Assembly: GCA_963760795.1 (NCBI GenBank)
Contig: CAVXEP010000018.1
Span: 15,241-79,240, forward strand
Length of the DNA stretch: 64,000 nucleotides
Reading direction: 5' to 3'
DNA from: an uncultured delta proteobacterium
Lineage (GTDB): Bacteria; Desulfobacterota; Binatia; UBA9968
A model generated the notes under the pieces. That model was not told where the DNA came from, did not search any database, and was given only the letters and a program-made list of their open reading frames with translations. This document shows, piece after piece, positions 19,927 to 64,000 of this stretch. Both the position numbers and the translations under genes were made by a program. Position 1 is the first letter of the stretch, and every line of letters begins with the position of its first letter.

Positions 19927-20035
19927 CCAATCCTAACCCTTCATCCGAAACAACCGCATCGCGTTGCCCCCAAGAATCTTCTCTTTGTCTACTTCTGATA
20001 TCCTCTTCATCGCCATGATCGGTGCTATTGGCCCG
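19927..20035 (-). pseudogene. 3'-terminal remnant of an amidohydrolase-2 paralog
   Basis: Reads ...GPIAPIMAMKRISEVDKEKILGGNAMRLFRMKG*, against the end of the intact gene at 21989 (...IAPIKAMKGISEEDKEKILGGNAMRLFGMKS*). An in-frame TGA lies upstream. Confidence 0.6.
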
Positions 20036-20076
20036 ACTCAGGCACCACCTTGCGCGCCCATGCCTGTAATTTCCCC

Positions 20077-20916
20077 TTAAGCAGTGGAAACCGCGGGCTC
20101 AACCGCGGATGCCTCTCGTGGAATTTCCTCGGTCAGTTCCTGAGCCGATACGAATTTCTTTTTTAAAGTCGCCGCTCCGATGATAGTCGCGAATGGCACA
20201 TCGGCAGCGTCGCGGCCCATGCCGATGCGTACGAGTCCTGCCAGCGGGGCCAGTCGCGTGGCATCGAACAGGTACCAGTGATTTCCCAGATAGGCTTCGA
20301 AAAAGCCATGAAAGTCAGGCGGATCGAGGGCAACGGCGTAACCTGAAACGTAGCGCGCCGGAATGCAGAGCGCCCGGCACAAGGCGATCGCCAGATGGGC
20401 GTAATCGCGGCACACACCGGAGCGTAGGATGAGCACGTCACAGGCACCGGTCGAAGCGTTGGTAATGCCGGGTAGATAGTTCAGATGGTCGTACGTCCAT
20501 TGACAAATGGCAGCGACACGAGAATAACCGCGATCCAAGCGGCCGAACTCCGCCATGGCGAAATTAGCCAGCCGATCCGACTCACAGTAGCGACTGGGAT
20601 TGAGATAGGGCAGCACCTCCTCAGGCAATTCTGGATGGTCGATCTCGGGAATTTGCGGCGGGCTATCGACTGCGGGGTTCAAACTAACGCTCGCCTGATA
20701 ATGAAGCGTCAGCTCGCCGGGCATGGTCTGGAGGCGAAACACGCGATTGTCCTCAGCGCCGAGAGAGCAAATGTCGTATTCCTTGGCGGGCTCGACACGA
20801 ACGTCTTCATGGTGCACCGCCTGATGCTGCGTGTTCGCCGCCGTGACATGAAATAAGAAACTGGTCGGCGCTGTGACTTGATATTGCAATTCACAGCCCA
20901 CTCTAATTAACGACAT
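20077..20916 (-). CDS. Transglutaminase-like cysteine protease superfamily protein
   Basis: Cys-His-Asp core: GVCRDYAHL, DFHGFFEAY, WYLFDAT. It has the N-terminal bacterial transglutaminase-N type region. Confidence 0.85.
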   Translation of the reverse strand: MSLIRVGCELQYQVTAPTSFLFHVTAANTQHQAVHHEDVRVEPAKEYDICSLGAEDNRVFRLQTMPGELTLHYQASVSLNPAVDSPPQIPEIDHPELPEEVLPYLNPSRYCESDRLANFAMAEFGRLDRGYSRVAAICQWTYDHLNYLPGITNASTGACDVLILRSGVCRDYAHLAIALCRALCIPARYVSGYAVALDPPDFHGFFEAYLGNHWYLFDATRLAPLAGLVRIGMGRDAADVPFATIIGAATLKKKFVSAQELTEEIPREASAVEPAVSTA

Positions 20917-20939
20917 GATTGTACCTTAGTCTGATTTCG

Positions 20940-21665
20940 TTAACGAACATTTGATAAAAGTGATTTCGCCCAATCCATCGGAAACTCACCTAGAGCGACG
21001 CCCAAGCGCTGTTGCCACCACGCAGCGGCGGACGCCAGCGCCGGTTCATCGAAGCGCTGTTGATGAAGCGAGCGGGTTGACGGATCAAAAACAATAACGT
21101 CAATCGGGAAAGCAACATCGATAACACTCGTGCGAGTCGCATCGAAGGCAAGATAAGCCAACCCCAAAGCCTGGGTGATCGGGGTGCCGACGGCCAGCAA
21201 CCGGTCTAGGATCGGCCTGCCATATAGCGTGCGACCGAGGATAAAATAAGGCGAGTCCGAGGTCGCTTCGATCCAATTGCCTTCCGGATAAATATAAAAC
21301 AGTGTGGGGGTTGGATCACCGTCGAGCTGCCCGCCAATGATCGCGTGCAGATTAAAACTTAAGCCACCTTGGGCGAGCGCCGCCTCGTCTTCCTGACGGA
21401 CTCTGCGCAACTGTTCGCCAAACGACTGGGCGACCTGATAGAGGCGTTCAAAACCTAGGGCTTCTTCAGCGAGTTTCTCTTCAAGATAAATTACGGTCTT
21501 GTCGCGCACCGAGCGCAACCCCGAGGTCATAATAAAAAGCTGCTGCGCACGATGGCGTACCAGCGCGAGTTTACCCTTGCTGAGCCGTTCGCCTCCTTTA
21601 ACGATCTGCGTGTCGGCCAGCGCGACCAAACCCTGCTCAACTTTAATCCCCACGCAAAATGTCAT
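20940..21665 (-). CDS. Anbu-type proteasome-like peptidase (Ntn hydrolase, beta-subunit homolog)
   Basis: The internal start gives MTFCVGIKVEQGLVALADTQ, with Thr directly after Met as in Anbu/HslV/20S beta subunits. The longer 21743 start adds a non-conserved leader. Confidence 0.7.
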   Translation of the reverse strand: MTFCVGIKVEQGLVALADTQIVKGGERLSKGKLALVRHRAQQLFIMTSGLRSVRDKTVIYLEEKLAEEALGFERLYQVAQSFGEQLRRVRQEDEAALAQGGLSFNLHAIIGGQLDGDPTPTLFYIYPEGNWIEATSDSPYFILGRTLYGRPILDRLLAVGTPITQALGLAYLAFDATRTSVIDVAFPIDVIVFDPSTRSLHQQRFDEPALASAAAWWQQRLGVALGEFPMDWAKSLLSNVR

Positions 21666-21785
21666 TGTTGCCAATCGACTAGAGTGCCGATCGCGACCGG
21701 CAAGCTTATCCGATAATCTTAATAGATTGCAGACGTTATACAAGGAGGAGATCTAGAGCCCGCACTTATTGCGGTGTCTGGGCTC

Positions 21786-21896
21786 CGGCCGCGGTACACC
21801 AGCACATCGAATAAGTAATACCGAATCCCCGATGCCCTTGCGCGGTGATACTGCAGCAGCTTGAACGAGTTCTGACCGTCATCGTCGAGCGCGCCG
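21786..21896 (-). pseudogene. Short remnant of an ATP-dependent DNA ligase (LigD ligase-domain-like)
   Basis: The minus strand reads GALDDDGQNSFKLLQYHRARASGIRYYLFDVLVYRG, resembling the conserved ...ALDEDGRPSFQ.LQ.....YY.FDLL.LDG block. There is no ORF context around it. Confidence 0.4.
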
Positions 21897-21955
21897 CAAC
21901 TTTGTAGCGCTTTGCAAGTCTAGAATCTTGCTTTAGAGAAGCCTTGCGCTATCAA

Positions 21956-21995
21956 CTTTGCGCCCTATGCGTTCTTTGCGGCCAATTCCTAACTC
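21956..21995. repeat. TTTGCG(Y)CCTWTGCGTTCTTTGCGGCCAAT element
   Basis: ctttgcgccctatgcgttctttgcggccaattcctaactc abuts the stop of the amidohydrolase at 21989. It forms the start of direct repeat DR-B2. Confidence 0.7.
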
Positions 21996-23092
21996 TTCAT
22001 CCCAAACAACCGCATTGCATTGCCGCCTAAAATCTTCTCCTTATCTTCCTCCGATATCCCCTTCATCGCCTTGATCGGCGCGATCGTATTCGGCCAGGTG
22101 GAAATCGCGTCGCCGTGGTCGAAGTCGCTGCCGATAATGATGTTGTGGTTGGGCCAGACTTCGACGATCTGCGGCAGGTAATCCTCCCAGGCGATGGCGG
22201 CGATGTAGAGCTGATCGAAATAATCGCTCGGTGCGCGTTTGAGTTTGTCGCGCTTGCGGAAAAAGTCGTTCACCGAAGTCGTGCCCGGCGACGCGGATAG
22301 GGTGTGGTGGTTGAGGGTCTTCATCAGCCAGGGCACCCAGCCGATGCCGCCTTCGAAAAATGAGATACGCAGATCGGGAAAGCGGTCGAGCACGCCGCTC
22401 ATGATCAAGCGCGCCGCGCTGACCATGTAGGTCAAAGGAAATCCGAGAGCCGTCGCGAGCATCTTGAAGCCATCGTAACGGTCGCTGCCGACCAGCCAGG
22501 GATGGCAATCCTGCGCTTCGAAGACGCGCGTACCGGGATGAACCAGGATCGGCACATCGAGCTTGCAGACCTCTTCGTAAAACGGCCACAGCACCTCGGC
22601 ATCGAGATCGCAATTAGCGTGGCCGCCCATGAGCTTCACGCCCTTGAAACCTAACTCTTTGACCGCGCGGCGCAGTTCGCGGATCGACTCGTCGACATCA
22701 GGCAAGTAAACCCAGGCGATGCCGAGAAAGCGCTCGCGTCCGGCGATATCTTCGGCCACCGTGTCGTTGTAGGCGCGCGCCATGGCCACGCCGAGATCGC
22801 GATCCACTTCGTAGATCAGCGGCCGGTTATCGGCGATCACCACTTGGTAGTCGAAACCTTCGCGCACCATGACATCGTGGTGCATGTCGAGATTCCAACG
22901 GGTCTCGCTGAACGAGTGAATCTTCTTGCCGTCGCGAAAGTAAGTCGCCGCATCGCCGGGAAAGTCGACGCCGAAGCGGCTCACCGCGCCGGTGCCTTTT
23001 TGGAATTCGATATGGCCGCGCCCCGGATGATCTACCTTGTCGATAAAACGCACCGGCCAGTAATGAGTATCGCCGTCAATGTACATCATCAC
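21989..23092 (-). CDS. Amidohydrolase-2 family protein, paralog 3
   Basis: 367-aa intact ORF: MMMYIDGDTHYWP..., HPG..., FFEGGIGW, GSDFDHGD. Confidence 0.85.
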   Translation of the reverse strand: MMMYIDGDTHYWPVRFIDKVDHPGRGHIEFQKGTGAVSRFGVDFPGDAATYFRDGKKIHSFSETRWNLDMHHDVMVREGFDYQVVIADNRPLIYEVDRDLGVAMARAYNDTVAEDIAGRERFLGIAWVYLPDVDESIRELRRAVKELGFKGVKLMGGHANCDLDAEVLWPFYEEVCKLDVPILVHPGTRVFEAQDCHPWLVGSDRYDGFKMLATALGFPLTYMVSAARLIMSGVLDRFPDLRISFFEGGIGWVPWLMKTLNHHTLSASPGTTSVNDFFRKRDKLKRAPSDYFDQLYIAAIAWEDYLPQIVEVWPNHNIIIGSDFDHGDAISTWPNTIAPIKAMKGISEEDKEKILGGNAMRLFGMKS

Positions 23093-35807: not shown

Positions 35808-36240
35808 ATGGCCGAATTCATTCCGGTGGAAACCGGCAGGGCTAAAGAATTTCTCGACGAACAATCATCATGGCGTGCTCGCCACCCGGCGCAAAAACGG
35901 CGACTTGCAGATGTCGCCGGTAACCTGCGGTCTCGATGGCGCAGGCCGAGCGGTGATCAGCAGCCGCGAGACCGCGTACAAGGTCAACAATCTGCGCCGC
36001 GATCCGCGCGCCGCCCTATGCACGTTCGGCAATACGTTTCACGGCGAAGGCTGGGTCCAAGTCAGCGGCAAGGCCGAAATCGTTTCGCTACCCGAAGCCC
36101 TCGACACTCTGGTCTACTTGCAGCGCCAAGTCTACGGCGAGCACAAGAGCTGGCCGGAATTTCACCAACGCATGGCGCGCGAGCAGCGCGTGATCATTCG
36201 CATCTCCCTCGAAAGCGTCGGCCCTAAAGTGCGCGGCTAA
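35808..36240 (+). CDS. PPOX-class (pyridoxamine 5'-phosphate oxidase-like, probably F420-dependent) protein, one apparent frameshift near 35864
   Basis: MAEFIPVETGRAKEFLDEQ joins HHGVLATRRKNGDLQMSPV... in ORF 35875..36240. Confidence 0.65.
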
Positions 36241-46689: not shown

Positions 46690-46775
46690 GTTGCACCTCT
46701 TTTGCCGTTGACGTTACATCGTCACACAATACTTCAGATCGACTGCCAATGAAATTATTTTATTCTTTCGCCAAG

Positions 46776-48586
46776 CTAAATTTTCAAATCGGACAACCCG
46801 CCCGCCCGCCATCGGGCTCGCGAAATACCGCTTGCAATTTGTCGAGGTCTCGCCGCGACTCGCTTGTCGCTCCGCAGCTGCGCCACCGGCAGATCCATGA
46901 ACCTTTCCATGACCACCCGCAACGACTCCGCGTAAACCGTCCGGTCACCGATAAAATTGAATGAAGCGGCATACATCGCATGGCCCGTACCGCGAAACTC
47001 GATCAGCGCGCGCTCGCCCTTGAGACCATCGCGATAAAAATCCTCGGCTTGGCAGCCGGCGATCACTGTGTCCCGGGCGCCCTTGAGAATCAGCGTGCGG
47101 ACCTCATGGCGGATGATTCTTCGGCGTCCAAGGGCAGATCTTTTCCGCTGGAAGGCTCCGAGTTTCCTGGCTTCGCCGCGTAGCAGTTCTTTGCCGCCGC
47201 TGCCGGCGGCGAACGCCGTGACATCTTTGCCGGTGAAGCAGCCGCCGCTGTCGCGCTCGATCATGCCCGGCCGCAGTAAAGAACGGGCGACACCATCATA
47301 CAGGCCGAGCACCTGGTTGGCGCGAATCGATTCCAGTTGCCCGCCGCGTTGGCCGGTCGGCTTTGCCGGCGCGATGATCTTGCAGTACCCAGTGGCGCAT
47401 TGGGCGTTTTTTAAAAATGGCGAACTGGCCGCGCACTGGCGCGCCACCGTTGCGTTGCCGGAGGCGCTTTTCTCCTCGAGAGTTAGATAGTGGCCGATCA
47501 CCAACGCCGCATCGATTTGCCAGGCGAAGTCACCGGCGTAAGGCTTGACGCCGGATTCCGGCGCGCCGGTAAACTGCAGCGTTTTAATTGCCGTATAAAA
47601 TTCCCGCGGGAAGTGCGGACGCGATACGGGCATCAGCCGACTTGAGCAAGTCGTCATAATGATCGGTGACGAAATCCACCGAGCCGAACTGTTCCTCGAT
47701 TTCACTCAGGAGCTTTGCCATCCTATCGCTGAGCAAATTGGCTTGTTCGACATCGATAAAACAAAAATTATAGCTGCTGCGAGCGTCCACTAGGGCGCTC
47801 ACCTCGCCGAGCTTTTCCGTGGCTGTGCCCAAAAACGTTTGCACCGGCACCGGGAGCTTTCGATCGCGGCAGTCACAAGGCTGCCCGGCCGGCGAACGGT
47901 AAGTCGTCAAGATCAATTTCAAGTTTGCCGCGGTCATGTGGGCGCGGGCGGCATGGGTGTCGCGATCTCGCACCACCGGCGCGGACAAGATCAGCGTCTT
48001 GACTTTTTTGGAGCCGAATCTAGCCGCGTACAATTGCGCCGGCAGCGCGCCCCAACTATGCGAGTAGATCGCGTCCCAGGGTTTGCGGTTGAGCACCGCC
48101 TTGCGGATTTTTTCGATGTCGTCGGCGACGTATTCGGCCGCGCAGGAAACGGTCGAACTTGTTGCTCGCCGGGATCACGCTGCGGCCGCCGCCGCGCAGG
48201 TCGAAATAAACTACATTATGATGCGCCTCCAGATGGCCAAGCATACGACCCATCTGGTTGACGTTGTCGACCAGCGCGCCGGGCCCGCCGGCAATGAATA
48301 AAATATTCTTGCGCTCGGGACGGGCGAGGTTAAACCCCTTGCCGAAAAAATAATACAAGTCGAACTTACAAGGATCGTCGTGACAATCGATCTCCTTGGG
48401 CATCGCCATGTCGTCGGGCAAGAGCCGGACATCGGCGATTTTGCGCATTAGTTGGCCGCTGCGGCTGGCGGGCCGGGTACTCATCTCCGCCGGTGTCCAA
48501 TGATAATTCTCGCCGCTCTCGCCGGCGTAGGCGGAACCCGCGACAAGTAAAACTGCGATGACACTCAAAGCAAACCGTCGCTGCAT
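46776..48586 (-). pseudogene. Signal-peptide alpha/beta hydrolase (proline-iminopeptidase-like core with large insertion), two frame breaks
   Basis: GGAGGAGG RBS plus ATG 48586 (MQRRFALSVIAVLLVAGSAYA). ILFIAGGPG, VVYFDLRGGGRS. Break about 48135 leads into AEYVADDIEKIRK...YSHSWGA (nucleophile). Break about 47640 leads into ...ILKGARDTVIAG...FRGTGHAMY. Confidence 0.6.
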
Positions 48587-48600
48587 TGCATCCTCCTCCA

Positions 48601-51600
48601 TTATGAGCCGTCAGACACCATGTGAAAATTCGCTATATCGCCCTCAGGCCGCGCCACCGCGGCGCCGAGCATCGCCATGAATCCATCGAGCAACTGTTGG
48701 GCGTGGCACTCATCGAACATAGCTGCAGCGGTAGGTGACAGTTACCGTCAACTTAGTTGCCAGCTCGCGGAACTCGAAACTCAGCTCTGCCGGCGTAAGC
48801 GCCACCTCCGGGTCCGCCGCCCGATCCCCGCCATTGGACCAATGCGCAAATCTGACACCAGCGGCTTCCTCGGATTCGTCAACCATGCGCCGATAGTTGA
48901 CCATGACCTGATAAAGGGAGATCGGCTCACCGCCCTCGCCCTGCAAACTACGGCTGAGTTCGGCGATGGGCAGATCTTGATGAGCAAAGGCTTCCTGCGC
49001 TACGGATCGGGTCTGTTGCAAAAGATCGTCGAACGACATCCGCGGCGCTACGCGGGTTCGCAACACCACTGCATTGACGAAGTAGCCGATCAGATTTTCG
49101 CGTATGCGGCTGTTGGCGATTTGCCACTAAAGTGCCGATGCAAAGATCGCGGCACCCGGTCAAACGGTAGAGCCACAAGTTTAACGCCGCCACCAGCACG
49201 ACAAACGGCGTGGTTTTCCGCGCGCGCGCCAATTCGTGAATTGCCGCGCTGACCGCCGCTTTCATATCCATCGACAGCCGTCCGCTCCGCAGTGTCAATT
49301 TTTTTCGCCGTTTGCCGACCGCAGGAAACTCGATCGTTGGCAACGGACCGGCCAACCGCTTCTGCCAAAAGTTGAGTTGATCGTCGAATCCGCCGGTATC
49401 CAACATGCGCCGCTGCCATCGACTGAAATCGACGAATTGGTACGGCAACGCCGCGACCGCCGCGGGCTCGCCTTGAGCAAAGGCTTTGTAAAACGCCACA
49501 AGCTCGCGGCGAAACAGCCGCATCGACCATTGATCGGCGATCATATGATGCATTGTCACCAGAAAAATATGTTCCGCCGCGGCCAACCGCACCAAAGTGA
49601 CCCGGAACGGCGGCCCCTTGTCCAAGTCAAAAATCTCCTGGGCATCCTCGTGGGAGATCCGCTGCAAGTTCGCTGCTGCGCTTTGGCTCTGGCTTCGCCG
49701 CCAAATCGAATCGCCTAAGCGGTACGCGCATTCGGCGCCGGACGACTTGGACGAGCTGGCCATGGCGCTCGTTTGAAGACCGTGCGCAACACCGCATGGC
49801 GCGCCATGATCTTTTCAATGGCACGCCGCAGCGCCGCCTGGTTCAACCGGCCGCTCAGTCGGTACCCGTACGGGAGGTTCAGAAAATCCGCCCCCGACAA
49901 CAGGTCATCCATGCGCCAGAAAAGGTCCTGAGCCGATGACACCGGTAACGCACCGCCTTGTATGGCTCGACGGCAGGATTGGCGGCAGCGCCGCGCGCTC
50001 GCCTTTTTCGATCCGAGCAGCGACGCCGGCAACCGTCGGCGCATCGAAAAACTCGCGCACGGAGAACTCGGCGCCAAATGCCGCGCGCAGCCGCGCGACT
50101 ATCTGCATCGCCAATATCGAATGGCCACCGAGCTCGAAGAAGTCATCGTCGACGCCGATCCAGTCTAAACCCAGCCCTTCGCGCCAGATCGCGGCAACTT
50201 TCTCTTCGGTTTCGTTGCGCGGACCCACCAGCTTCGATTCAGCCGCGCGCTGGTGCGCCTGTGAGCTCCGGCAGCGCGCGTCGATCGATTTTGCCGTTGG
50301 GCAGAAGCGGTATGCGCTCCAACCGAACAAACCCCGCCGGTACCATGTAAGCCGGCAGCATTTGCTGGAGATATTCGCGCAGCTCACGGTCGGTCGGCGG
50401 CATCTGAGGAAACAATGTACGCCACCAACGACTGTCGCCAATTTTGCATTGGTCGCATCGCACCGCTGGCATCGGTCTGCAGCGGTCACAACACAGTCGT
50501 CGATCCTTGGATGACTGCGCAGCGCCGCTTCGATCTCGCCCGGTTCAACCCGCTGGCCGGCGAATTTGATTTGATTATCCGCGCGGCCGAGATATTCGAG
50601 ATTGCCATCGGCGCGGTAACGCGCCAAGTCGCCGGTGCGAAACAGCCGGGAGCCCGGATCGGCGCTGAACGGATTGACGACGAATTTTTCCGCGGTCAGT
50701 TCCGGCCGGCGCCAATAGCCCCGCGCCAAGCCGTCGCCGCCGACATACAGTTCGCCGATGACGCCGACTGGCACGGGCTGGCGCTGCGCGTCCAGAAGAT
50801 AACACCGTGGTGTTCGAAATCGGCCGGCCGATGGCCACCGTCTTCCCCGAAGTCCGGCCGTCATATTCAAAACAGCTTGCGTCGGCGGCGACTTCCGCCG
50901 AACCGTAGAGATTGAGCAACACCGCCTTGGGATGACTCTTGCGAAACCGCTCTGCGAGTTCAGTGCTCAGCGCCTCGCCGCTGCTGGTCCAGAGCTTTAG
51001 CCGCGGCAATTTAACCGTCAGATTGACGCCATCGTCGAGAAAGGCTTTTAGCAGCGACGGCACCAAGACAACACGGCTCACCCGCCGATGGGCGAGAAAC
51101 TCGATCAGCAAATGGGGATCATGGGCGGTGTCATCGTCAGCGATGGTCAGAGGAACGCCTTGCAGCAGCGGTCCGAATATTTCCCACACCGAATCGACGA
51201 AACTCAATGACGTCTTGCTGCAACAGACCTCGCCAGGACGAAACGGATAGCGCCGCCACATCCAGTCACAACGATTGACCACGCCGCGATGAAGCCCGAC
51301 CACGCCTTTAGGCAAACCGGTGGAACCTGAAGTGTAGATGAGATAAGCGGCGCTTGCCGCCCTGGACAGTACTGTGGGATTCTCATGACTCTGGCCGGCG
51401 AATAGATCGGCATCGTCGAGACAAACCAGCGAAACATTCGCCTGGGAAATTGTGCCGGCGAGCTCTCGCTGGGTGAGCAAAAGGTCGATTTCAGCGTCAG
51501 CGACCATGAATTCCAAGCGCGCGTGCGGATAACTTGGATCGAGTGGCACATAAGCAGCGCCGGCTTTGAGAATCCCGAGCATGCCCACGACCATCTCAAG

Positions 51601-53342
51601 CGACCGCGCGACCAGCAGCCCGACGGGCTTGTCGGCGCCAACGCCACGACCACGTAAAAAATGCGCCACGCGATTGGCATGCCGGTTGAGTTCGGCGAAG
51701 GTCAACGTTGACGATTGGAACTCTAGGGCAACGGCGTCGGGCGTGCGCGCGACTTGGGCCTCGAAGAGCTCGTGAATGCAGCTCTGGCTCGGATAAGCTG
51801 CCGCGCTGTCGTTCCATTCGACTAAGCATACGCCGCCGCTCGTTGGCACCGAGCAATTCTAACGCGCCGATAGCGCGATCGGGATTAGTGACAATATCAT
51901 CGAGCAGCGGCGAAAAATGTCCCGCCATGCGCTCGATGGTCGCGGCGTCGAACAAATCGCTAGGCGTACTCGAAATAACCGAGCAACCGGCCGCCGCGCT
52001 CGCGCAAATAAAGCGAGAGATCGTACTGCGCCGTAGCGTTCTCCACTTCCACCGGGTCGATATCTAATCCTTCCGGCACCGCCCAACGGTTCGGCGTGTT
52101 CTGCAAAACAAAGAAAGCTTGAAACAACGGCTGGCGATTGAGCTCCCGGCGCGGCTTGAGTTCCTCGACCAGTTTCTCGAACGGGATAGCCTGGTGCGCG
52201 TAAGCATCGAGACAAACTTCGCGCACCCGCCGCAAATAGTCGCGAAAGCTTGGCTGGCCGCTCAGATCGCCGCGCAGAATCAAAGTGTTGACGAAGAAGC
52301 CGATCAGCCCTTCGCATTCGGCGTGAGGACGATGGGTCACCGCGGAACCCACGGCGATATCGTCCTGGCCCGAGTAACGATGCAGCAAGAGCTGAAACGC
52401 CGCCAACAGCACCATGAACTGCGTCGCTTTCTCCTGCGCAGCCAGGCGATTGAGCGACGCCGTTAACGATGGTGAAAAATTTATCGGGTAGCGTCCACCG
52501 CGAAAACTTTGCCGCACCGGCCGGGGCCGGTCGGTGGGCAGATCGAGGGCTGCCACGCCATCCAGCTGTTTACGCCAGTACAGAAGTTGCTCCTGAAGCG
52601 GCGCCGTCTCCAAACGGCGGCGCTGCCAAATGGCAAAGTCACCATATTGAATCGGCAATTCGGCCAAGGGGGATACTTGTCCAGCGGCGAAGGCCACGTA
52701 AAGTTGCCAAAGTTCGCCGACGAGAATTCCCATGGACCAGGCATCGGCGACCAAATGATGGGTAGTTAGAAGCAAAATATGCTCAGCATCGTCGACTTGC
52801 AGTAAGCGCGCGCGCAGCAGTCGCCCCGCCGCCAGATCGAAGTAAGTTTCCGCTTCCAGCTTAATGCGCCGGCGCAGTTCGTTGTCACGTCGGGCGCCGG
52901 AAAGCCGACGCAGATCTGTTACCCGCAGCAACCTTGTGGCGTCGGCAACCGGAACTTGCATCGGTATGCCGTCGATCGTGCAAAACCTCGACCGGAGCAC
53001 CTCATGGCGCCGGACAATCTCGTTGAGACTCGCGGCGAGAGTCTGGCGATGGAGCGGACCGCGTAGGCGGAACCCGCGGCATAAGTTGTAAACCGACCTT
53101 TCCGGCTCCAGTTGCGTCAAGAACCACAGACGTTCTTGGGCCAACGACAAAGGTGCCTCTACGGCTGTCCTGCGGCGCGGAACGGACGGCGCAACGCTTA
53201 AAGCACCGGCGCGAAGCCTCGTTAGCAGCTCGGCTTTTCGCGCGGCGATGGCTGCGCGCAGCTCATCATGCAGCGCGCCCTTGGGTGCGTTGATGCGCAG
53301 CTTATCGCCATCGGCGGATATCGCGATATCGAGCGCACGCAA
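48601..53342 (-). pseudogene. NRPS gene C: docking domain-C-A-T-C (module 4 plus terminal condensation domain), many frame breaks as assembled
   Basis: TubC-type docking sequence (FIAQLRALDIAISADGDKLRINAPKGALHDELRAAIAARKAELL). C: LSLAQERLWFL, HHLVAD 52743-52760. A: [63 protein letters not shown]: FFELGGHS (Ser 50118-50120). Terminal C: HHMIAD 49533-49550, ending ...FDECHAQQLLDGF...HMVSDGS* at 48601. The fragments are ORFs 51960..53342, 51596..51955, 50575..51849, 49905..50870, 50239..50472, 49715..50077, 48948..49763 and 48710..49069. Confidence 0.8.
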
Positions 53343-53365
53343 CTGCGCGATGAAGTCCTCGGTAT

Positions 53366-56300
53366 CTATATCTCGATCTCCTCGCGCTCGCCGCCGCCAA
53401 CCGCCACCGGCTCCACGTTCAAATTCAACGATGTCAGCGAGCGCGCCAACGCCGCCACCGTCGGCGCCGCGAGAAAGGCGCGTAACTCGATACCGACGCC
53501 GAAGTCATTTTTAATCCGCACCGCGGCTTGCGCGGCGAGCAAAGAATGGCCGCCGAGGCGAAAGAAATTATCCTCGACGCCGATCCGCTCTCGGCCCAAT
53601 ACCTCGGTAAATATCTCGCACAGCTTGGCTTCGACCTCAGAACGCGGCGCGATGGCCGCAGCGCTCGACTGGGCGCGCGATTCCAGCACCGGCGGCAACG
53701 CGTCGTAGTCGAGCTTGCCATTGGGCCCCAGCGGCAGCCGGTCTAGCAGGACGAAATAACCCGGCACCATGTAGTCCGGCAGCTTGGCGGCAAGATAGGA
53801 ACGTAAAACGTCGATCTCGCTTTCCCCTGCTTCGCTGGCGACGACGCAAGCAACTAACCGTTTATCGAATTTTGGATTTTGGATTTGGGATTTTGGATTG
53901 TCGGATTCAGGAGTTGGGAAGTCTCTTGCGATCACCACTGCGTCGAGCACCGTCGAATGTTGTTTGAGCGCCGTTTCGATTTCCGCCAGCTCGACGCGGA
54001 AGCCACGGATGTTGACGCGCCGGTCGGATCGGCCGGCCCACTCGACATTGCCGTCGGGCCGATAGCGGGCGAGTTCGCCGGTACGATAGAGCCGGTCACG
54101 TCCGTCCCCGATGAATGGACTTGCGATAAACATCGCGGCGCTGCGCTCGTCGTCGTCCAGATAGCCCAAGGCCAAATGCGGGCTGCGCACATAGAGTTCG
54201 CCCAACTCACCGATGCCGCAAAGTCGCCGGCGCTTGTTTAGAACCAGTAACTGCACGTCCTTGATACCGCGCCCCAACGGCAGCGGCCGCGATGACTGGT
54301 CAGCGGCGTCGAGGGTCTCGCCGCCAATCTCATAGTAGCCGACGGCGCGCTGGGTCTCGGTGGCGCCGTAAAAACTGCCGATCACCGCCTTTGGCGCCAA
54401 TCGGTGCATGCGCCGCACGTCGTCGCTGGTCAAGACATCGCCGCCGAAAAAGATCCGGCGCAGCGCCGGCAACGGCCGCTCACCGCCGGCTAAAAGCAAC
54501 TGGCCCAGCGCCGGCGTGAGATGCAAAACCGTGATGCGATTTTCGTCCAACCATTTTGCCAGTAAGTCCGGCGCCCGGGCGGTGCGATCGTCGGGAATGT
54601 AAAGCGTCGCGCCGAGCGCCAGCGCGGTAAATAGGTCGCGATGCAGATGACTGTAGGCCAGGCCGGAGAGCATGGCGAAGCGATCGCTCTCACGCAACTC
54701 GAAGGCGTCCGCGCTGCCAGGGCAGAAAATGCGTCATCGGCCCATGACCGCAGAGAACGGCTTTGGGTTCTCCGCTGGAGCCGGATGTAAAGGCGATATA
54801 GGCTGGATCGCTGCGCCGCTACCGGCACCGAGACACGGGCCGTTCTCGCTATGCGCCAGTGCTGCGATAATCGCTGCTTTGCCGCGCGCTAGAGTCATGT
54901 GAAATTTGACGTCCAATGCCTTCAGACAGCCGGCCAATTCCGCCGCGAGTTCGGCCGTGCCATCGAGTTTGATCCAAGCCCTAGGCCGAGCAATTCTCAG
55001 GTAATCCAGTGAGCGTGCCGCCGGGTACGCCGGATCGAGAATCAAAAAGCTTGCGCCGGTTTGAAGAATTCCCAACAGGGCAACGACTAACGACGCATCG
55101 CGCGCAGCGTAGATCGCCACCACGTCCTTGGGTTTCACGCCGCCGGCACGGAGCGCGCTGCTAAGCCGCGCGGCGGCCTGATCAAGCTCGGCGTAGCTCC
55201 AACTCTCACCGCCCTGAACTAGCGCAGTTTTTGCCGGCGCATGGCGCGTTTGCTCGGCGACCAGTTCATGAATCGCCCCCTCCCAGCGGTCATCGAGCAC
55301 CGCCGTCGGATCGGGCAGCAACCCCTGCGCCGTTTCGCCAACTAGTGAAAGCTCCTCAATCGCCAGCTCAGGACAGCGCAGCGCTTGCGCGAGGATCAGT
55401 TCGAATTGTTCGAGCACGGCAGCGATTCGCTCCGGGCGGTAAAGTTCGACATTGTAATCCACCGTGAGTTCCACGCTGCCAGCGATTTCCGGCGCCGACA
55501 GCACCAAATCGAATTTGGCGCCGGGGGCGCTTGCCATTATCTTGTCGATCTTGCAGCCAGACAGCGAAAACCTGCGCTCCGACAGGTCGGCGACATTGAA
55601 GAGAATATCGAACAGCGGATTGCGGCTGGGTGCGCGCGCCGGATTGACCTCTTCGACCAATTTTTCAAACGGCAACTCTTGATTGCTGTACGCGTCCAAG
55701 CAAACTTCGCGAACTCGGCGCAGCAGGCCAACGAAACTCGGATTGTCGCCAAGTTGAAGCCGAAGCGGCAGGACGTTGATAAAGAAGCCTATGACGCCTT
55801 CCATCGCCGCATGATTGCGCCCGCCAACCGTGGAGCCGATGACGACATCGGTCTGGCCGCCGATCCGCGACAGCAACACGCTGAACGCCGCAAGCAAAGT
55901 CATGAACGATGTCACGCCCTGTTGACGAGTGAAACGGTTCAGCGCCGCACTGAGTTCCACAGGCAGGCGCCGTACCAATCTGGCGCCGCGGTAGCTGCGC
56001 GCCGCCGGACGAGGAAAATCCGTCGGCATCGATACTGGCGTCGGCAAACCGGCGAGATTACGCTTCCAGTAATCCAGCTCGGCAGCACAGGCCGGTGAGG
56101 CTAGCCACTGCTGCTGCCAAGCAGCGTAATCGGCAAATCGAAGCGGCAATGGTGCGGCTAACGCGACTTCCGTACGGCGATAAGACTCATAGCTCAATGA
56201 AAGTTCGCGAAAAAAGATCGCCAGAGAGGAACCATCGGCGATGATATGATGAAAGTTCAAGATCAGCAGATGATCCTGCTCCGCCAGTTTGACCAAGTGA

Positions 56301-59300
56301 GCACGCCACAGCGGCGCCTGTGCCAAATCATAGGGCGTGCGAGCAACCAGGTCCGCCAGCCGACGCCATTCCGATTCCGCTTGGTCCTTGCGGCAAACCG
56401 GACAAATCGGTGATCGGCAGCGCAATCGTTATCTCCGCGACAATTTCCTGGCAGGGTTCGCCGTCAACTTCTTTAATGGCGGTGCGCAGCGCCTCGTGGC
56501 GCGCAGTGACCAGATTCAACCCCTGCGCCAATGCTGCAACGTCGAGATCGCCGTCGATGCGAAATACCGCCGGTATATGGTAAGCAGCGAGATCGCCGTC
56601 AAGTTTTTGCAAGAACCACAAACGGCGCTGGGAAAATGACAGCGGCAAATTGCCGCCACGCGCGATTCGCGCCATCGGCACCACGCCCGTCCCTCTCTGA
56701 TTACGGCGCAATATGGCAATTTCATCGGCGAGCCCGGCGACGGTGGGCCGTTCAAAGATTTTCCGCAGCGCCAGATCGACGTTAAAATGGCCGCGCAGGC
56801 GCGCCACCACGCGGGTCGCGAGCAGCGAGTGGCCGCCCAGCTGGAAAAAGTTTTCATTGCACGCCGAGCCGGTCGCCGTTTCAACACTTCGCGCCAAACC
56901 TGCGCCACCAGCTCTTCGATCTCGTCGCGCGGCTCGATAAATTCACTGGGCAGCGCTGGTTCGCGGTCCATCCGGAGCAGGCAATGCCCGGCGGTCGACT
57001 TTACCGTTGGGCGTCAGCGGCAAGGCTGGCAAAGACATGAAAACAGCCGGCACCATGCAGCTGGGCAACTTAGCGCTCAGGTAGCCACGCAAATCATTTT
57101 CCGCCAACGTCACGCCGTCTCGGGGCACCAAGTAGGCGACCAACTCACTCTCGCCCTCGCCGCCGGTGGCCCCGGCGACGACCGCCGCATCCCGCACCGC
57201 TGGATGCAGTCGGAGAACGCTCTCAATCTCGCCCAATTCGATGCGGTAACCGCGCAGCTTCACCTGGTTATCGGATGCGGCCGAGGTACTCCACGGTGCC
57301 GTCGGCCTGATACCGAGCCAGGTCTCCAGTGCGGTAAATCCGTGCACCGGGTTCACGGCTAAAGGGATTCGCGATAAAGCGCTCCGCGGTCAAGTCCGGC
57401 CGATTCAAATAGCCGCGCGCCACGCCGGCGCCGCCGATGTAAAGCTCGCCGACCACGCCGATCGGCACCGGCTGCATTACGCCGTCTAGAATATAGAGCT
57501 GGGTATTCGCCAGGGGCCGGCCGATGGGAACGGTAGCGCCAACACCCTCGACGCGATGCATCGTCGACCAGATGGTGCTCTCGGTGGGGCCATAGAGATT
57601 CCACAACTCGCCGCAGCCACGTAAGCGATCGGCCAGAGTCGCGCGGGCAGCGCTTCGCCGCCGCAGAGAATTTTAAATTCGGCCATCGCCCTGCCAGCCG
57701 GCTTCGAGCAGCAGACGCCAGGTCGACGGCGTCGCCTGCATCGTCGTCGCGCCGGAACTCTTCAACCGTTGCGCCAAACGCTCGCCATCGCGCGCCTCGT
57801 CACGGCTGGCGACCACTAATTTGCCGCCCGTGATCAACGGCAACAAGATTTCCGCCGCGGCGATATCGAAAGAAATCGTCGTCACCGCCAGCCAGACATC
57901 GGCTTTGGCTGATTTTCAAATGGCGCTGCATTGAGAGCAGGCAATTGACCAACGAGCGCTGTTCGATCTCGACGCCTTTAGGATGGCCGGTCGACCCCGA
58001 AGTGTAAATTACGTAGGCGAGATCGCGCGGTGAAGACCCGCGCTTAATATTCTCGCTGCTATGGGTTTCGATATTTCGTCGCTCACGATCTAATAAGATG
58101 ACGATGGGGTCGAGAATGGAGGATTGAGGATCGAGGATCGCTATCATCCATTTTCCATCCTCGATCGTCGGCGATACTCTTCTGGCTAATCAGCACCGAC
58201 ACCTGCGCGTCGTCTAAAATAAATTCCAGCCGTTCTCTCGGATATTCCGGGTCGAGCGGCAAATAGGCCGCGCCGGCTTTGAGCACGGCGAGCAGTGCAA
58301 CGACCATGTCGACCGAGCGCTCCAGGCATAGGGCGACGACGCAGTTTCGCCCGACGCCAAGTTTTGTTAAATAGCGCGCCAAGCGGTTGGCGCGGCGATT
58401 CAGTCGGCCGTAGGTCAAACGCTCCGGGCCGCACTCAAGCGCCAGCGCGCTCGGCGTGCGCTGCGCTTGGCGTTCGAACAATTGATGCACACAAGCCTTC
58501 GGTACAACCGCGCGCGTTCGGTTCCACTCGATCAACAAACGGCGGCGCTCCTTTTCGCCCATCATCGGCAGTCGGGCAATCGACCGATCTGGCTCGGCGA
58601 CGATCGCGTTCAGCAGCGTGAGGAAATGTTGCAGCATGCGCGCGATGGTGTCGTCGGCGAATAGTGACCTGCGATATTCAACAAAGCCGCTGAGCCGGCC
58701 GTCGCGTTCGCCCAACGCCAGACTGAGATCGTATTTGGCCCCGCCGCTGTCGCAGTCGATGGCCTCGCTGCGAATGCCGTGCAGGCTCAATTCGGCGGGC
58801 AACTGGTTTTGAAACGTGAACAGCGTCTGGAAAATCGGCGTGCGGCTGGGATCGCGCGATTGCTTCAACTCATCGACCAGCCGCTCGAACGGCAGCTCCT
58901 GATGCGCCAGCGCCTCTTGCAAGTTAGTCGCGCAGCCTTGCCAGCAGTTGGGTAAATGTCGGATCGCCGGCGAGATCGCTGCGCAGCGCCAGGGTATTGA
59001 CGAACGAGCCGATGAGATTCTCCAGCGCTGGATGGTCGCGATTGGCCACCGGGAAACCGACAACGAGATCGTCCTGCCGCGTGTAGCGCCAGAGCAGGAC
59101 GTTGAACGCCGCCATCAAGGTGACGAACAGCGTGTTCGACGCCCTGGCGCTCAGTTCTTTGAGCCCGGCGGTGAGCGCTTTGTCGAGTATGATTTTCTGC
59201 CGCGCGCCTTTTAAGCTCGCGGCTGCCGCCCGCGGCTTATCCGCCGGCAGATCGAGAACCGGCAACACGCCGCCCAACTGTTTTTTCCAATAGGCCAGTG

Positions 59301-60016
59301 GCGCCGCCAAGGCTGCATCGTCGAACCCCCGGCGCTGCCAAAGCGCGTAGTCGCCATACTGCACCGGCAACTCGGCGAGGGAAGCGGCTTCGGCTGCGCC
59401 GCCGTTGGCGTAAAGCGCTTCGAGTTCACGGTAAAACAGATCGAGCGAGCGGCCATCGCACACCGCCTGGTGCGCGACAAAAACGAAAACATGGTCTTGG
59501 CGATCGAGTTGAAGCAGCGTAACGCGCAGCAGCGGTTCGGCGCTAAGATTGAAACAATGGCCAGCTTCGGCGCCCACCCGCAGGCCGATTTCCTCGTCAC
59601 GGAGATTGACGCGCGATATGGCGCAAATCGAACATTTGCAGCGCCGGCGCGGTCAACGGCAAGACCTGCTGCAGCGGCCGATCGCCGTCATTCGCCAACA
59701 CTGTGCGCAGCACTTCGTGGCGCTGCACGATACGCTGCACGCAACGGCTGAGCAGCGTGACGTCGAGCGCCCCCTTGAGACGCCAAGCGCGGGCGACGTT
59801 GTAAACCGCACTGGCCGGCTCCCACTGCTGCAAAAACCACAAGCGCTCCTGAGCGAATGACAGCGGCACGACTGCGCCGCTGGGGCGCGGCGTGATTGCG
59901 CTCGCAGCACCAGCGTCTGAATCAGTACTTTTGTCCCGCAGCCGCGCCAGTAAACGCAGCTTGGCCGCGCCCAGCGCGGCGCCGGACTGGGGCTTGGAGT
60001 GGCGAGTCGTGTTCAT
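53366..60016 (-). pseudogene. NRPS gene B: C-A-T-C-A-T (modules 2 and 3), many frame breaks as assembled
   Basis: ATG 60016 (MNTTRHS). C: LSFAQERLWFL, RHEVLRT, AHQAVCDG 59452-59475. A2: LTYGRLN, LKAGAAYLPLDP, YVIYTSGSTGHPKGV, FDIAAAE, NLYGPTE, GELYIGGAGVARGY, YRTGDL, KLRGYRIELGEIE, PLTPNGKVDRRAL. T2: FFQLGGHS (56826-56828). C: LSFSQRRLWFL, HHIIADG 56231-56251. A3 (Lys2-like): YIAFTSGSSGEPKAV, SGLAYSHLHRDLF, FYGATETQRA, YRTGEL, NIRGFRVELAEIE. T3: FFRLGGHS (53543-53545). Stop at 53366. Confidence 0.8.
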
Positions 60017-60020
60017 TCTA

Positions 60021-61952
60021 TTAATCGTCACCCAGCGCCCGGTAAATCTGCTCGGGCGCCATGCCATCGATCTCGAGCATGAGTCGCGCGCTTTCCGCCG
60101 CTGCGCCTGGGCAACGTTCTTGAGCCGTGATCCATGCCGCGAGCTGCGCCACGGTCGGCGTGGCAAATAGTGTTTTCAATGGCTGGGTCAAGGCAAACAG
60201 TTGGTTCACCCGTGCGACAATTGCGTTGGCCAGGAGCGAGTCGCCGCCAAGGGCGAAGAAATCGTCAGCGCTGCCCAATTCCTCCAACTGCAAGACCTCG
60301 CGCCAAAGCTGCACCAGGACGGTCTCCAGTTGGTTCCGCGGCGCGGCATAAGGAACATCGAGGGCGGCGCGCGAATGGCGCGCCTCCGGCAATCCACGCC
60401 GGTCGATCTTGCCGCTGCGGGTCATCGGCAGGCGGGCCAATTGAACAAACGCGGCGGGAATCATGTAATCGGGTAATTTTTCTTGCAACGCGCCGCGGAT
60501 TTGACTCACGTTCATGGCGGTACCGGCCCGCAAGACGACGTAGGCCAATAACCGCGCGCCGCCATCGCGCTGCTGCCGTGCCACCACCGCCGCTTGTACG
60601 ATGCCGACGATCTCGAGCAAGGCGATTTCAACTTCGGCAAGCTCGACCCGGTGGCCTCTAATTTTGGCTTGCAAATCTTTTCTGCCGACATGAACCAGAC
60701 AACCATCCGGCCGCAAATAACCTAGGTCGCCGGAAAGAAATATGCGCGCGTCGCTGCCGGCGGGATCGGTTAAGAACTTGGCTTGGGTCAATTCCGGACG
60801 ACGCCAATAGCCGCTGGCGAGAAAGCGGCTCTTTACCGCGATTTCACCGACAGTGTTTGCCGCCACCGGCTTTCCCGCTTCGTCCAGCACGGCGATTTCG
60901 TAACCGTCCAAGGCAAAGCCAACCGGCACCACCGGTTCTTCGACGATGCTATTCTTGTCGATGAAAAAATAGCTGGCGGTCTTGGTCTCGCTGATGCCAA
61001 GCCGGTTGACCAACCGGCAGCCGTCGATGAAGTGTTGCTTGAACAACTCGATGTCGGATTGAAACAGCGCCTCGCCGCCGAGATGAACCAAGCGAACACT
61101 AGGGAAAGTGGCGTGGTGGTCGACGTTGCGCAGCGCGTGGCGAAACACACTGGCGACACAAGTGAAGAACCGTGATCTCATCACCGATCAGCCAGTCGGC
61201 CAAACCGGCCAGTCCCTCTTCCTTGAGTTCCAACAGACACAGCGCCGCGCCATTGAGCAATCCCAGGAGCGCATCGGAAGTGGCGCCGACGTTGTGCGAG
61301 CGCAGCAGGCTGATGCGATCCGACGGTGTAATTGCCAACGCTTTGGCCTTGACCAGAATGCTATGCAACTCGCTGCCATGGTCCGACATGACGCCTTTGG
61401 GCTCGCCGGTGGAGCCGGAAGTGTAGTTGATATAGGCGATGGCGCTGGGCGCGATCGCCAACCCGAGATTGCTGTCGGCGAGATCGTCCTTGAGCGCGTC
61501 GAGATTGATCACGATAACATCGCCCCCGGCAAGCTCACGGGCGCAGCGATAGTGCTCGCTGTCGGTGACGATCGCGCGCGCGCCCTGCGTCTTCAATCAG
61601 CCGGGCGGCCCGCGCTTGCGGTAGTTTGTCGTCGATCTGGACAAACGGCCGGCCGGTCTTGAGCACCGCCAGGTTCGCTGTGATCAGCGCGCTTCCGTGT
61701 TTGAAGAGCAACGCGATCGGTTCGTCGCCTGCCGGCGATGCAGTCAAGATCGCACGGCCCAGCCGGTTCGCCGCGCGATTCAGTTGATCGTAGGTCAGCG
61801 CCTGATTCAAAGTTTTCAGGGCGAGGCGCGCGCCATGGAGCGCCACCTGCTGTTCGAAGCGGCCGGTGAGCGATTGCGCTGCCCCAGAGATACCGCGGGA
61901 ACAGATTCTCAGACGATCGTTTTCGCTGTGGTTTGGCCAGCCGTCGAGTCAT
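60021..61952 (-). pseudogene. NRPS gene A: loading module A-T, about three frame breaks as assembled
   Basis: ATG 61952. LTYDQLNRAANRLG; YINYTSGSTGEPKGV 61390-61434; GISETK (A5 variant); GEIAVKS..LASGYW; LSGDLG; KIRGHRVELAEVE; T domain FFALGGDS (Ser 60237-60239). TAA at 60021, 4 nt before gene B. Confidence 0.8.
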
Positions 61953-61994: not shown

Positions 61995-64000
61995 CTAACG
62001 AAACCGAGTTGAATCACTTTCGCCCATAGTCAGGAAGCCAGTCATCGCCAGAGCGGCGAAAAGTTCCCGCGCGGCGCTCGACTCTTGGCGCGCCTGCTCA
62101 AGGTTTCCCGCCACCCCATAGACTTGGGCAAGCGCCGCATGACAATGCGCCTGGAGCGGCCGCATCGCCATATCACTGGCAAGACTCAACGCTTCGCGAT
62201 AGTGCCCCTCGGCCTGCTCGATTTGTTTAACGGTGAGGCGCATGGCGATATCGCCGCGCAGCTTGAGCGCCAAAGCGCCATGACCCGGCTCTTTGTGTTG
62301 TTTGGATAACTCACAGGCACGATCCGCCAAGACCATCGCTTCGTCGATGCGATTGGCGCTCAAGTAGGCGTCGCTCAGCCAAGCGAGATTAAGCGCCAAG
62401 AACCCAGCCCGGCCCACCGCGGCGGAATCTTCGATGCTTTGCTCGAGTAGCCGCAACCCTTCAGCCTGACGGCCGGCACGGACATAAGCGTAACCCAGTC
62501 GCGGCGCAACCAAGGGCACATAAATCGCGATATGTTTCTCCTCGCACAGAGTCATCGCCCGCTCCAAGACTGGTATCGCTTCGTGAAAGTCACCCTTGAA
62601 AAGATACAGAAAACCGAGACTGGCGTTGACGTGAATCTGACTCACCGGATGATTCGCCTCATCGGCGATCTGCACGCCCTCGGCGCCGCGCTCCAGCCCT
62701 TCGGCAAAATCCCCGGTCATCGCCAAGGATTGCAACAAATGGCTGCGAAAGATCACCGAAAGAATCACCGTGGTGCCGAAACGTTGGTGGCGCAAAGCCC
62801 CCTCGACGCTTTGCATGCCGCTGCGCAGCACCGTCGCGGCGCGCCCATACTGGGCGACTTTGTTGTAAGCCACTCCGGTGTAGTAACTGGCCACCGCCCG
62901 CAATGCGGTGTCCTCTTGGGTGGCCGGCATCGCCAAGGCACGCTGGCCGGCTGCGATCGCCCGCTCGGGATCGCCGATCAAACCGTAATAACTATTTTGA
63001 AAATTGAGCACCCGCGCCAAGCGCCGGCTGTCGCCGATCCGTTCGGCGAGCGTCTCGGCTTGCGTCAGATGGTCACCGACCCGCGGTAAATCGCCGCGCA
63101 GAAACAGCACGTTGCGGCAGTCCAGGTGCAGATCGATGCGCTGCTCAAGTCGCGCCGCGGTTTCCGGCAGATGGCCGAGCGCTTCAAAGGCGCGGGTATA
63201 GTTATCAAAGGCCTCGCCGAAAGCCGAATGGCTCATCGCCTTGGCGCCCGCTTGGCTCATATAGTCGGCGGCTTTTTCCCATAACTCGCCGCGAAACGCG
63301 TGGTCCGCGAGCGCTTCAATCTCGTCGAGCGGATTGCCGCCGCTTAGCCGCTCGATCGCCGCCGCAGTCTGCGCATGCAGCGCTGTCTTGCGCTCGTGCA
63401 ATAATGCGCCGTACACCACTTCGTTGATCAACGCGTGGGTAAATTTGTATTCCAACTTGGGATATAAGTTGCTTTCATAAAGAAACTCGCCGGTTTGTAA
63501 ATGGCTCAAGGCGCCGCGCAGTTCTTCTTCCGGCAATCCCGTGATGCCATGGAGCAGCCGCTCGGGAACGATCATGCCGATGACCGCGGCGCTTTGCAGT
63601 AGTTGTTTCTCCAGCGCCGGCAAGCGATCGATGCGATCGGCGAGAACCGTTTGCACGGTGTTGGGAATACGAATGTTCTCGACCTGCACCCCCGGGCGAT
63701 AGTTTCCCTTCGCGCCAATCAGAATGCCCGAAGCGGTCAAAGAGCGCACGCTCTCTTCGACGAAGAACGGGTTACCATCCGTCCGGCTGATCAGCAGCTG
63801 TTTGACCGTCGCCAGATCGCCATGAGCGCCCATCAGCGCATCGAGCAACTCTTCCGCGCCTGCCGCCGTTAATGGATTGAGACGTAAACGGCTGTAGTGC
63901 TCTTTATTGGCCCATGCGTGGCTGTAGCCCGGCCGGTAATTGACCACTAAGCAGATCCGCCCGCTCGGCAGCCGATCGACTAAAGCGTCGAGAAACGCTT
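61995..64000 (-). CDS. STAND-type AAA ATPase with C-terminal TPR repeats (regulator-like), 5' end outside the window
   Basis: The frame stays open to position 64000 (...KRFLDALVDRLPSGRICLVVNYRPGYSHAW...). NPFFVEE motif, followed by about 450 aa of TPR-like helices. This resembles the C-terminal two thirds of adenylate-cyclase/LuxR-associated AAA+TPR regulators. Confidence 0.75.
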   Translation of the reverse strand, partial: AFLDALVDRLPSGRICLVVNYRPGYSHAWANKEHYSRLRLNPLTAAGAEELLDALMGAHGDLATVKQLLISRTDGNPFFVEESVRSLTASGILIGAKGNYRPGVQVENIRIPNTVQTVLADRIDRLPALEKQLLQSAAVIGMIVPERLLHGITGLPEEELRGALSHLQTGEFLYESNLYPKLEYKFTHALINEVVYGALLHERKTALHAQTAAAIERLSGGNPLDEIEALADHAFRGELWEKAADYMSQAGAKAMSHSAFGEAFDNYTRAFEALGHLPETAARLEQRIDLHLDCRNVLFLRGDLPRVGDHLTQAETLAERIGDSRRLARVLNFQNSYYGLIGDPERAIAAGQRALAMPATQEDTALRAVASYYTGVAYNKVAQYGRAATVLRSGMQSVEGALRHQRFGTTVILSVIFRSHLLQSLAMTGDFAEGLERGAEGVQIADEANHPVSQIHVNASLGFLYLFKGDFHEAIPVLERAMTLCEEKHIAIYVPLVAPRLGYAYVRAGRQAEGLRLLEQSIEDSAAVGRAGFLALNLAWLSDAYLSANRIDEAMVLADRACELSKQHKEPGHGALALKLRGDIAMRLTVKQIEQAEGHYREALSLASDMAMRPLQAHCHAALAQVYGVAGNLEQARQESSAARELFAALAMTGFLTMGESDSTRFR

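Follow-up and report, generated by a model that had tools for sequence, protein, structure and literature searches.

Frame changes packed into a nonribosomal peptide synthetase operon of an uncultured soil bacterium point to consensus errors rather than gene decay

Does an operon whose reading frame changes about 37 times record the decay of a biosynthetic pathway, or errors in the consensus through which we see it? The question is raised by a four-module nonribosomal peptide synthetase (NRPS) operon on the minus strand, at 61,952-46,776, of a 64,000-nucleotide stretch of DNA (the window) from an uncultured delta proteobacterium. Taken at face value, the locus would be annotated as some thirty pseudogene fragments, to be dropped from biosynthetic counts or cited as a case of decay in a biosynthetic gene cluster (BGC). 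A sequence-only reading of this DNA had left both answers standing, indels without motif erosion arguing for assembly or sequencing error and their strong local enrichment for real decay. Our results favour the former: the indels are private to single assemblies, consist of insertions, are absent from contigs assembled from k-mers, and come with neither stop codons nor relaxed selection, so that the fragmentation is almost certainly a data-quality artefact and not gene decay. More specifically, we consider it highly probable that the breaks are consensus errors driven by strain heterogeneity and that the genes are intact. The locus would then correctly be read as a complete NRPS operon of four modules, under purifying selection in a soil bacterium that is widespread and uncultured.

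One operon in many frames

Pfam matches of the fragments and of the read-through proteins give the operon the domain order A-T / C-A-T-C-A-T / TubC_N-C-A-T-C (A, adenylation; T, thiolation; C, condensation), followed by an alpha/beta-hydrolase gene (Table 1). Consecutive parts of the AMP-binding, Condensation, AMP-binding_C and PP-binding families fall in consecutive fragments that lie in differing frames, and tblastn with distant NRPS homologues as queries resolves, coarsely, about 20 frame hops of NRPS homology. The sequence-only reading had counted hops between at least 24 fragments; alignment to relatives bears this out and raises the count to 31 net events that change the frame of the three NRPS genes, several of them less than 50 nt apart. 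Nor does the damage start at 48,601, as had been supposed: the zone reaches 46,776, and the hydrolase gene carries 5-6 further events that leave it in three open reading frames (ORFs), whereas it is whole, at 599 amino acids (aa), in two of the relatives described below (L001 and L005).

The earlier statement that every catalytic motif is preserved essentially stands. The A3 TSGSTGxPK, A10 PxxxxGK, T-domain GGxS and C-domain HHxxxD motifs are seen in every module, with one C-domain variant excepted, and all domains are full length after read-through; the locus thus presents the ordered C, A and T modules and the core catalytic motifs by which an NRPS cluster is recognized. The exception is the first C domain of gene B, in which HQxxxDG replaces HHxxxDG (59452-59475, minus strand). 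The replacement is identical in all four relatives and, judging from the motif, this domain may be non-canonical or non-condensing. The start codon of the hydrolase gene shares one base with the stop codon of gene C, an arrangement that should be read as probable translational coupling of the hydrolase gene to the NRPS operon; its product may be a release or tailoring enzyme of the cluster.

The breaks are almost all extra bases. Gene A is interrupted at 61902, 61582 and 61169, in columns unique to the window, and its read-through protein covers AMP-binding over 1-384/384 as well as AMP-binding_C and PP-binding. Gene B has 15 net frame-changing extra bases, some found in the window without its sister assembly L002 (59609, 58930, 57685, 57647, 57276, 56945, 56856, 56391 and 54811) and others also in L002 (58102, 57910, 57639, 56877, 54829 and 54708). 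The 13 net events of gene C likewise comprise those of the window without L002 (51826, 50481, 50452 (2 bp), 50434, 50247, 49771, 49662, 49102 and 48722), those also in L002 (51962, 50802 and 50403) and an event of net +1 in the T-C linker at about 49960. In the hydrolase gene, the breaks consist of one base too many at each of 48139, 47626, 47109 and 46852 and one too few at 47156 and 46783.

Assembly-private insertions in genes under selection

The window was aligned to the syntenic relatives L001, L002 and L005, which show 91.7%, 97.7% and 93.7% nucleotide identity to it, respectively; L003 was left out. All come from one European Nucleotide Archive (ENA) series with Flye-style contig names, and NRPS genes are fragmented in the contigs of all four fetched relatives, at differing places. 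The contig of L001/L004 is recorded as 'MAG: uncultured delta proteobacterium isolate MFD09730.bin.4.339' (GTDB), a metagenome-assembled genome (MAG) of the Microflora Danica project, in which Nanopore-only reads were assembled with metaFlye and polished by one medaka round (PMC12313526). Origin from Nanopore-only reads by Flye and medaka is established for L001/L004 alone, L002, L003 and L005 sharing the ENA series and the style of contig names. Many NRPS homologues, close as well as distant, measure only 345-755 aa although they lie on long ENA contigs, their truncation being due to frameshifts and not to the ends of contigs; the best protein hits to the largest fragment are likewise short pieces of long contigs. 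In L005 the cupin and regulator genes of the flank (107-4666) are split as well; fragmentation seems widespread across this assembly series.

In the four-way alignment, the 1-bp columns unique to one assembly number 24 in the window (plus three of 2 bp), 25 in L002, 10 in L001 and 3 in L005, and the 1-bp columns absent from one assembly alone number 5, 3, 1 and 2 in the same order. A further 12 insertions are common to the window and L002 only, at the same positions and with the same bases, and are absent from L001, L005 and the short-read contigs described below. The lesion spectrum is thus almost purely one of +1 insertion. Among 23 window-private insertions, only 4 make a same-base run longer, and homopolymer density in the zone is not raised, on which grounds homopolymer error was rejected as the source. 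Programmed frameshifting and transcriptional slippage were also rejected, as the positions differ between relatives and the sites have no common motif. By contrast with these single-base events, haplotype indels longer than 2 bp inside genes come in multiples of three, for example 12 bp and 6 bp at 53.9 and 53.4 kb, and other in-frame length differences include one of 12 bp in gene C's T-C linker and, in the short-read contigs, an added TCC at 48590; such in-frame differences are the expected product of selection for an open frame. Two linkers are hypervariable in length between haplotypes, in steps of 12, 9, 6 and 3 bp: a low-complexity stretch in the region of the second A domain of gene B (53860-53920) and the T-C linker of gene C (49950-49975, minus strand).

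Independent sequence was available as Logan contigs (k-mer/de Bruijn assemblies) of six soil metagenome runs, X1-X4, X5 and X6, from three studies and at a depth of 4-10; with sizes of 1.1-1.9 Gb each, these runs are likely short-read. The extra base is missing from the Logan contigs at 28 fully listed sites, and at 3 more by gap count. Specifically, all three insertions of gene A are missing from the contigs of X1-X4, and the Logan contigs lack 5 of 5 extra bases between 58150 and 62100 and 9 of 9 between 56700 and 58200; wherever a stretch was listed in full, this applied to every event, those shared with L002 included. The contigs also lack the extra base at 56390, those at 50803, 51827 and 51965 (within 50050-53000) and those at 49960, 49771, 49662, 49102, 48722, 48140, 47628 and 47110 (within 46700-50100), and they contain the missing base at 47157. 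Three gaps in one X4 contig (record 29) fit 54708, 54811 and 54829, and across 50401-50486 an X5 contig has 79 letters against the window's 84. Sites 50247, 46852 and 46783 lie outside Logan contig coverage. The insertions private to L001 and to L002 are equally lacking from the Logan contigs, which show no gap relative to the window at the sites checked. The short-read contigs skip 3.3-3.6 kb between NRPS modules through shared words of 20-28 nt (window 50143-57279), an indication that conserved core motifs can tangle k-mer graphs without the modules being nucleotide repeats.

Correction restores the genes. With 42 window-only or window-and-L002-only bases removed, five one-base gaps filled and one linker base near 49,960 deleted, the genes become open frames of 656 (gene A), 2,264 (gene B, 60175-53369), 1,629 (gene C) and 607 codons (hydrolase), without an in-frame stop and with full-length Pfam domains. 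When only the private indels were corrected, the frame still shifted at 58102, 57910, 57639, 56877 and a few further sites, which exposed the class shared with L002.

Selection on the encoded proteins has not lapsed. The sequence-only reading had named premature stops and relaxed dN/dS (the ratio of non-synonymous to synonymous substitution rates) as the marks to look for against orthologues. In-frame stops number zero in the gap-free alignment blocks (about 4,600 codons) of the window, L001 and L002; dN/dS of the NRPS genes is 0.29 between the window and L002 and 0.26 between the window and L001, against 0.11 and 0.12 for the neighbouring regulator. Differences between the window and L002 in the NRPS genes are distributed 44/39/115 over codon positions 1, 2 and 3. 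The terminal branch of the window carries 27 synonymous and 11 non-synonymous private changes (the ratio of the corresponding polymorphism rates, pN/pS, is 0.14), where about 1:3 would be the neutral expectation, and that of L002 carries 35 synonymous to 21 non-synonymous changes, pN/pS over both branches ranging from 0.14 to 0.20. Purifying selection on the NRPS protein therefore continues on the window's own branch. Had the 12 shared frameshifts been real, both terminal branches should have evolved as dead DNA, and purifying selection is seen instead.

These data bear directly on real pseudogenisation of the NRPS operon and hydrolase gene in this lineage, with selection guarding the neighbours. 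Such decay would account for breaks limited almost exactly to one operon, for the 12 insertions common to the sister assembly, as descent predicts, and for the fact that elsewhere in the window most listed indel differences from the short-read contigs lie at or near intergenic places, as if only unselected DNA tolerated them. As in genuine pseudogene clusters, there are many frame breaks, in a non-essential secondary-metabolite operon with intact neighbours. We nevertheless regard decay as very unlikely. Selection is not relaxed: the low pN/pS on the terminal branches postdates the supposed shared frameshifts, and the dN/dS of 0.29 does not exceed that of the deep branches. The spectrum is not the mixed one of decaying genes, with zero nonsense changes and almost exclusively +1 events. 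On the window branch about 27 insertions stand against 38 point changes, that is, about 0.7 per substitution, all +1 and hardly any in homopolymers; the mutation spectra established for bacteria favour deletions and are tied to runs, and we know of none that approaches this ratio. Unlike genuine pseudogene clusters, the operon has neither nonsense changes nor deletions, nor, apart from the 12 insertions shared with L002, do the assemblies agree, nor do the short-read contigs support its lesions: the set of private insertions differs from one Nanopore assembly to the next, and no k-mer contig has any insertion that was checked. Decay would also leave a further signature, described in the next section (P below 1e-7), without a cause.

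A compromise would treat the 12 insertions shared with L002 as inherited lesions, the cluster being dead in this sub-lineage, and only the private ones as consensus errors. The shared events are indeed identical in position and base, and just 3 of the 12 show the stacking of alleles set out below. Against it speaks the strong purifying selection that both terminal branches show after the supposed loss of function. The shared events are also of the same odd kind as the private ones (+1, outside homopolymers), and they are absent from L001, L005 and all short-read contigs; we hold this compromise to be highly unlikely.

Two alleles side by side in a zone of strain divergence

Many insertions set side by side the two alleles of a single-nucleotide polymorphism (SNP) between haplotypes, the extra base being one allele and its neighbour the other. 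At 57276 the window reads AT where L001 has A and L002 has T; at both 56391 and 54811 it reads GC where they have G and C, respectively; and at 49102 it reads CG where they have C and G. L002 has stacked alleles in the same way at 56201 (GT), 54123 (CT) and 47615 (GA). When extra bases were compared with the allele of a distant haplotype at the adjacent column, with random insertions into the same alignment as the control, stacking was found for 11 of 24 window-private insertions (expected 1.5; P = 6e-8), 13 of 24 private to L002 (expected 1.5; P = 3e-10), three of eight private to L001 (expected 0.5; P = 0.013) and 3 of the 12 shared by the window and L002. The alternative allele is hit 7-9 times more often than expected by chance. 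Most of the stacked alleles are those of the more distant, L001-like haplotype, which suggests that reads of a relative 6-8% diverged piled onto the contig across the operon only.

These observations are consistent with an NRPS cluster that is intact and under selection in an uncultured soil bacterium, and whose frame changes would have arisen during consensus computation. The read pile-up over the operon probably mixed two or more haplotypes several per cent apart, and at some polymorphic sites the consensus would have kept both alleles side by side, each time gaining one base and shifting the frame. A caller that treats co-mapped haplotypes as noise may prefer the both-allele candidate, because each read set then needs one deletion. 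Calling of this kind would explain the bias to insertion, the lack of a homopolymer link, the position at SNPs and the recurrence in similar strain mixtures. Of the usual marks of long-read artefact, assembly-specific indels and absence from k-mer contigs are found here and homopolymer location is not; errors at SNPs rather than in homopolymers indicate a heterogeneity-driven variant of the consensus artefact. Flye by default collapses alternative-haplotype bubbles, and the window would itself come from a long-read, strain-collapsing pipeline.

Why, then, should one operon be affected? The local enrichment follows a zone of higher strain divergence and not, as the sequence-only reading had argued, lost selection. 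Of the words sampled from a control stretch, 0.69-0.77 are present in the soil runs, against 0.29-0.38 for the NRPS stretch in those same runs; the divergence of the run contigs from the window is 0.4-1% at 22-41 kb and 2-4% in the operon, with 20 and 79 indel rows, respectively; and differences between the window and L002 per kb at 46-62 kb are 3-5 times those at 45 and 63 kb. The cause of the local enrichment would be a mixed pile-up limited to the operon. Mixing in the operon only could have come about through a collapsed haplotype bubble, through a relative's contig that lacks the operon, or through the presence of the BGC in another genomic context, each of which is possible. The earlier suggestion of a low-coverage or collapsed region comes close to this mixed-haplotype pile-up, except that collapse of paralogous modules is excluded: the modules have no nucleotide similarity of the kind required. 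Collapse or cross-mapping of paralogous NRPS modules was rejected on a self-BLAST of 46-62.2 kb, which gives only matches of 43-72 nt at 74-81% identity. A visible mosaic of L001 and L002 alleles in the window was also sought and set aside, the private SNPs being tree-like with some clustering and hence uninformative.

Several points weigh against consensus error driven by strain mixture. Independent random error would not repeat 12 insertions in the window and L002; these imply common descent or else an error that recurs deterministically where haplotype mixtures are similar, and the stacking signature appears in only a quarter of them. Inside the operon the short-read contigs differ from the window by 2-5%, so that, strictly, they show other strains to be intact, and no run holds the whole window (at most 0.77 of its words). 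That the Logan runs consist of short reads is likely from their size rather than documented. Finally, dS between the window and L002 is 0.03 in the flank and 0.04 in the operon, and polymorphism alone may not explain the sharp boundaries of the zone.

Generic noise of low-coverage long reads, that is, random indels left by a single polishing and conspicuous in long genes, would dispense with any strain mixture. It would accommodate the breakage of relatives of the same series, including the split cupin and regulator genes of L005, the shortness (350-650 aa) of many database homologues on long ENA contigs, and a stray extra base at 35858, outside the operon. Noise of this kind would not pack some 37 events into 15 kb while sparing roughly 45 kb, would not hit SNPs with the alternative allele so far above chance, and would not strike two assemblies at the same 12 positions; we therefore judge it unlikely. 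At the opposite extreme, the insertions could be real products of recombination between diverged alleles, with heteroduplex mismatches mis-repaired into tandem both-allele insertions. This would imply repeated rapid inactivation in separate lineages while recombination imports selected sequence; we consider it extremely unlikely.

Indels are known to fragment the ORFs of NRPS and polyketide synthases (PKS) in Nanopore metagenomes (Waschulin et al. 2021, PMC8692599), and BGC mining is routinely preceded by frameshift repair with proovframe (Burian et al. 2025, PMC12818350). As in those Nanopore-fragmented megasynthases (PMC8692599), single-base indels cut the NRPS of the window into many ORFs with homology continuing in another frame. 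Unlike the classical Nanopore case, in which homopolymer-length errors occur assembly-wide, the errors of the window are non-homopolymer, concentrated in one operon and linked to polymorphic sites. The effects of microdiversity on metagenome assembly have been described as fragmentation and as effects on MAG yield (PMC9262707, PMC12313526). The window resembles a strain-collapsed consensus, in which a region of divergent strains is given one path and several haplotypes are polished together, a likeness that would extend to the pipeline behind the window; the both-alleles insertion signature is not discussed in these strain-collapse papers (PMC9262707, PMC12313526). What differs here from known indel fragmentation of NRPS and PKS genes is its non-homopolymer, SNP-linked, operon-local form. 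For quality control, the lesson is that strain-collapsed long-read contigs can pile frameshifts into a polymorphic operon while the rest of the contig stays clean. That the condition can be diagnosed without reads, from +1 insertions that differ from assembly to assembly and contain the two alleles of an adjacent SNP, is a modest methodological point.

Neighbouring genes and the rest of the window

Table 1. Coordinates of the operon genes and of selected neighbours in the window.
Feature	Coordinates	Strand	Remarks
NRPS gene A, loading module A-T	60021..61952	-	Read-through 642 aa; ATG at 61952
NRPS gene B, two modules C-A-T-C-A-T	53366..60016	-	Read-through 2,211 aa; ATG near 60016
NRPS gene C, TubC_N docking domain, C-A-T and terminal C	48601..53342	-	Read-through ~1,584 aa
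Alpha/beta-hydrolase gene, signal-peptide-like N-terminus	46776..48601	-	Abhydrolase_1 (Pfam)
Regulator with guanylate-cyclase, AAA and TPR domains	61998..64000	-	Runs off window end; intact, no window-private indel
Sigma-54 enhancer-binding protein with GAF, AAA and HTH domains, 515 aa	44779..46326	+	Intact in window
PNPOx-like gene	35808..36237	+	PNPOx_N (Pfam)

The sequence-only reading had described the long neighbouring genes as free of breaks, and this contrast holds. Unbroken ORFs or full-length Pfam matches were found for hydantoinase B, the amidase, the molybdenum-cofactor subunit, the thiamine diphosphate (ThDP) enzyme, the extracytoplasmic function (ECF) sigma factor and its anti-sigma factor, the amidohydrolase, the enhancer-binding protein and the 2-kb regulator, the last of which shows 0 gaps against the Logan contigs over 62108-64000. 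Altogether, roughly 45 kb of other genes hold one or two such events at most, against about 37 in the 15 kb of the operon. The flanks are not wholly clean, as is seen at the PNPOx-like gene, where the window-only base 35858, missing from four of four short-read runs, cuts the first 17 codons (MAEFIPVETGRAKEFLE...) off the N-terminus; without this base the gene is a single ORF with its ATG preceded by AAGGAA. Most of the other one-base differences listed for the control stretch are likewise bases that the window has in excess, at intergenic places or close to them. Breakage of a neighbour is also seen in a relative, as the L001 orthologue of the sigma-54 enhancer-binding protein is split by an extra base private to L001 (event at 45270).

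Scans of the window for tRNA genes and Rfam families found nothing. The depth of soil-run words reaches 5-20 times that of the rest of the window at 24.5-25.2, 26.4-27.1, 28.3-29.6 and 45.0-46.3 kb; many other soil taxa have these segments (glyoxalase-like, histidine phosphatase and sigma-54 AAA domain) at an identity of 90% or more. A stretch at about 18000-22000 has a lower GC content (0.50 against about 0.58) and few long ORFs at 18.3-20.0 kb. On the minus strand, a transglutaminase-like gene (20077-20916) neighbours a weakly matching proteasome-subunit-like gene (20940-21743), a pair that resembles an Anbu-type peptidase operon.

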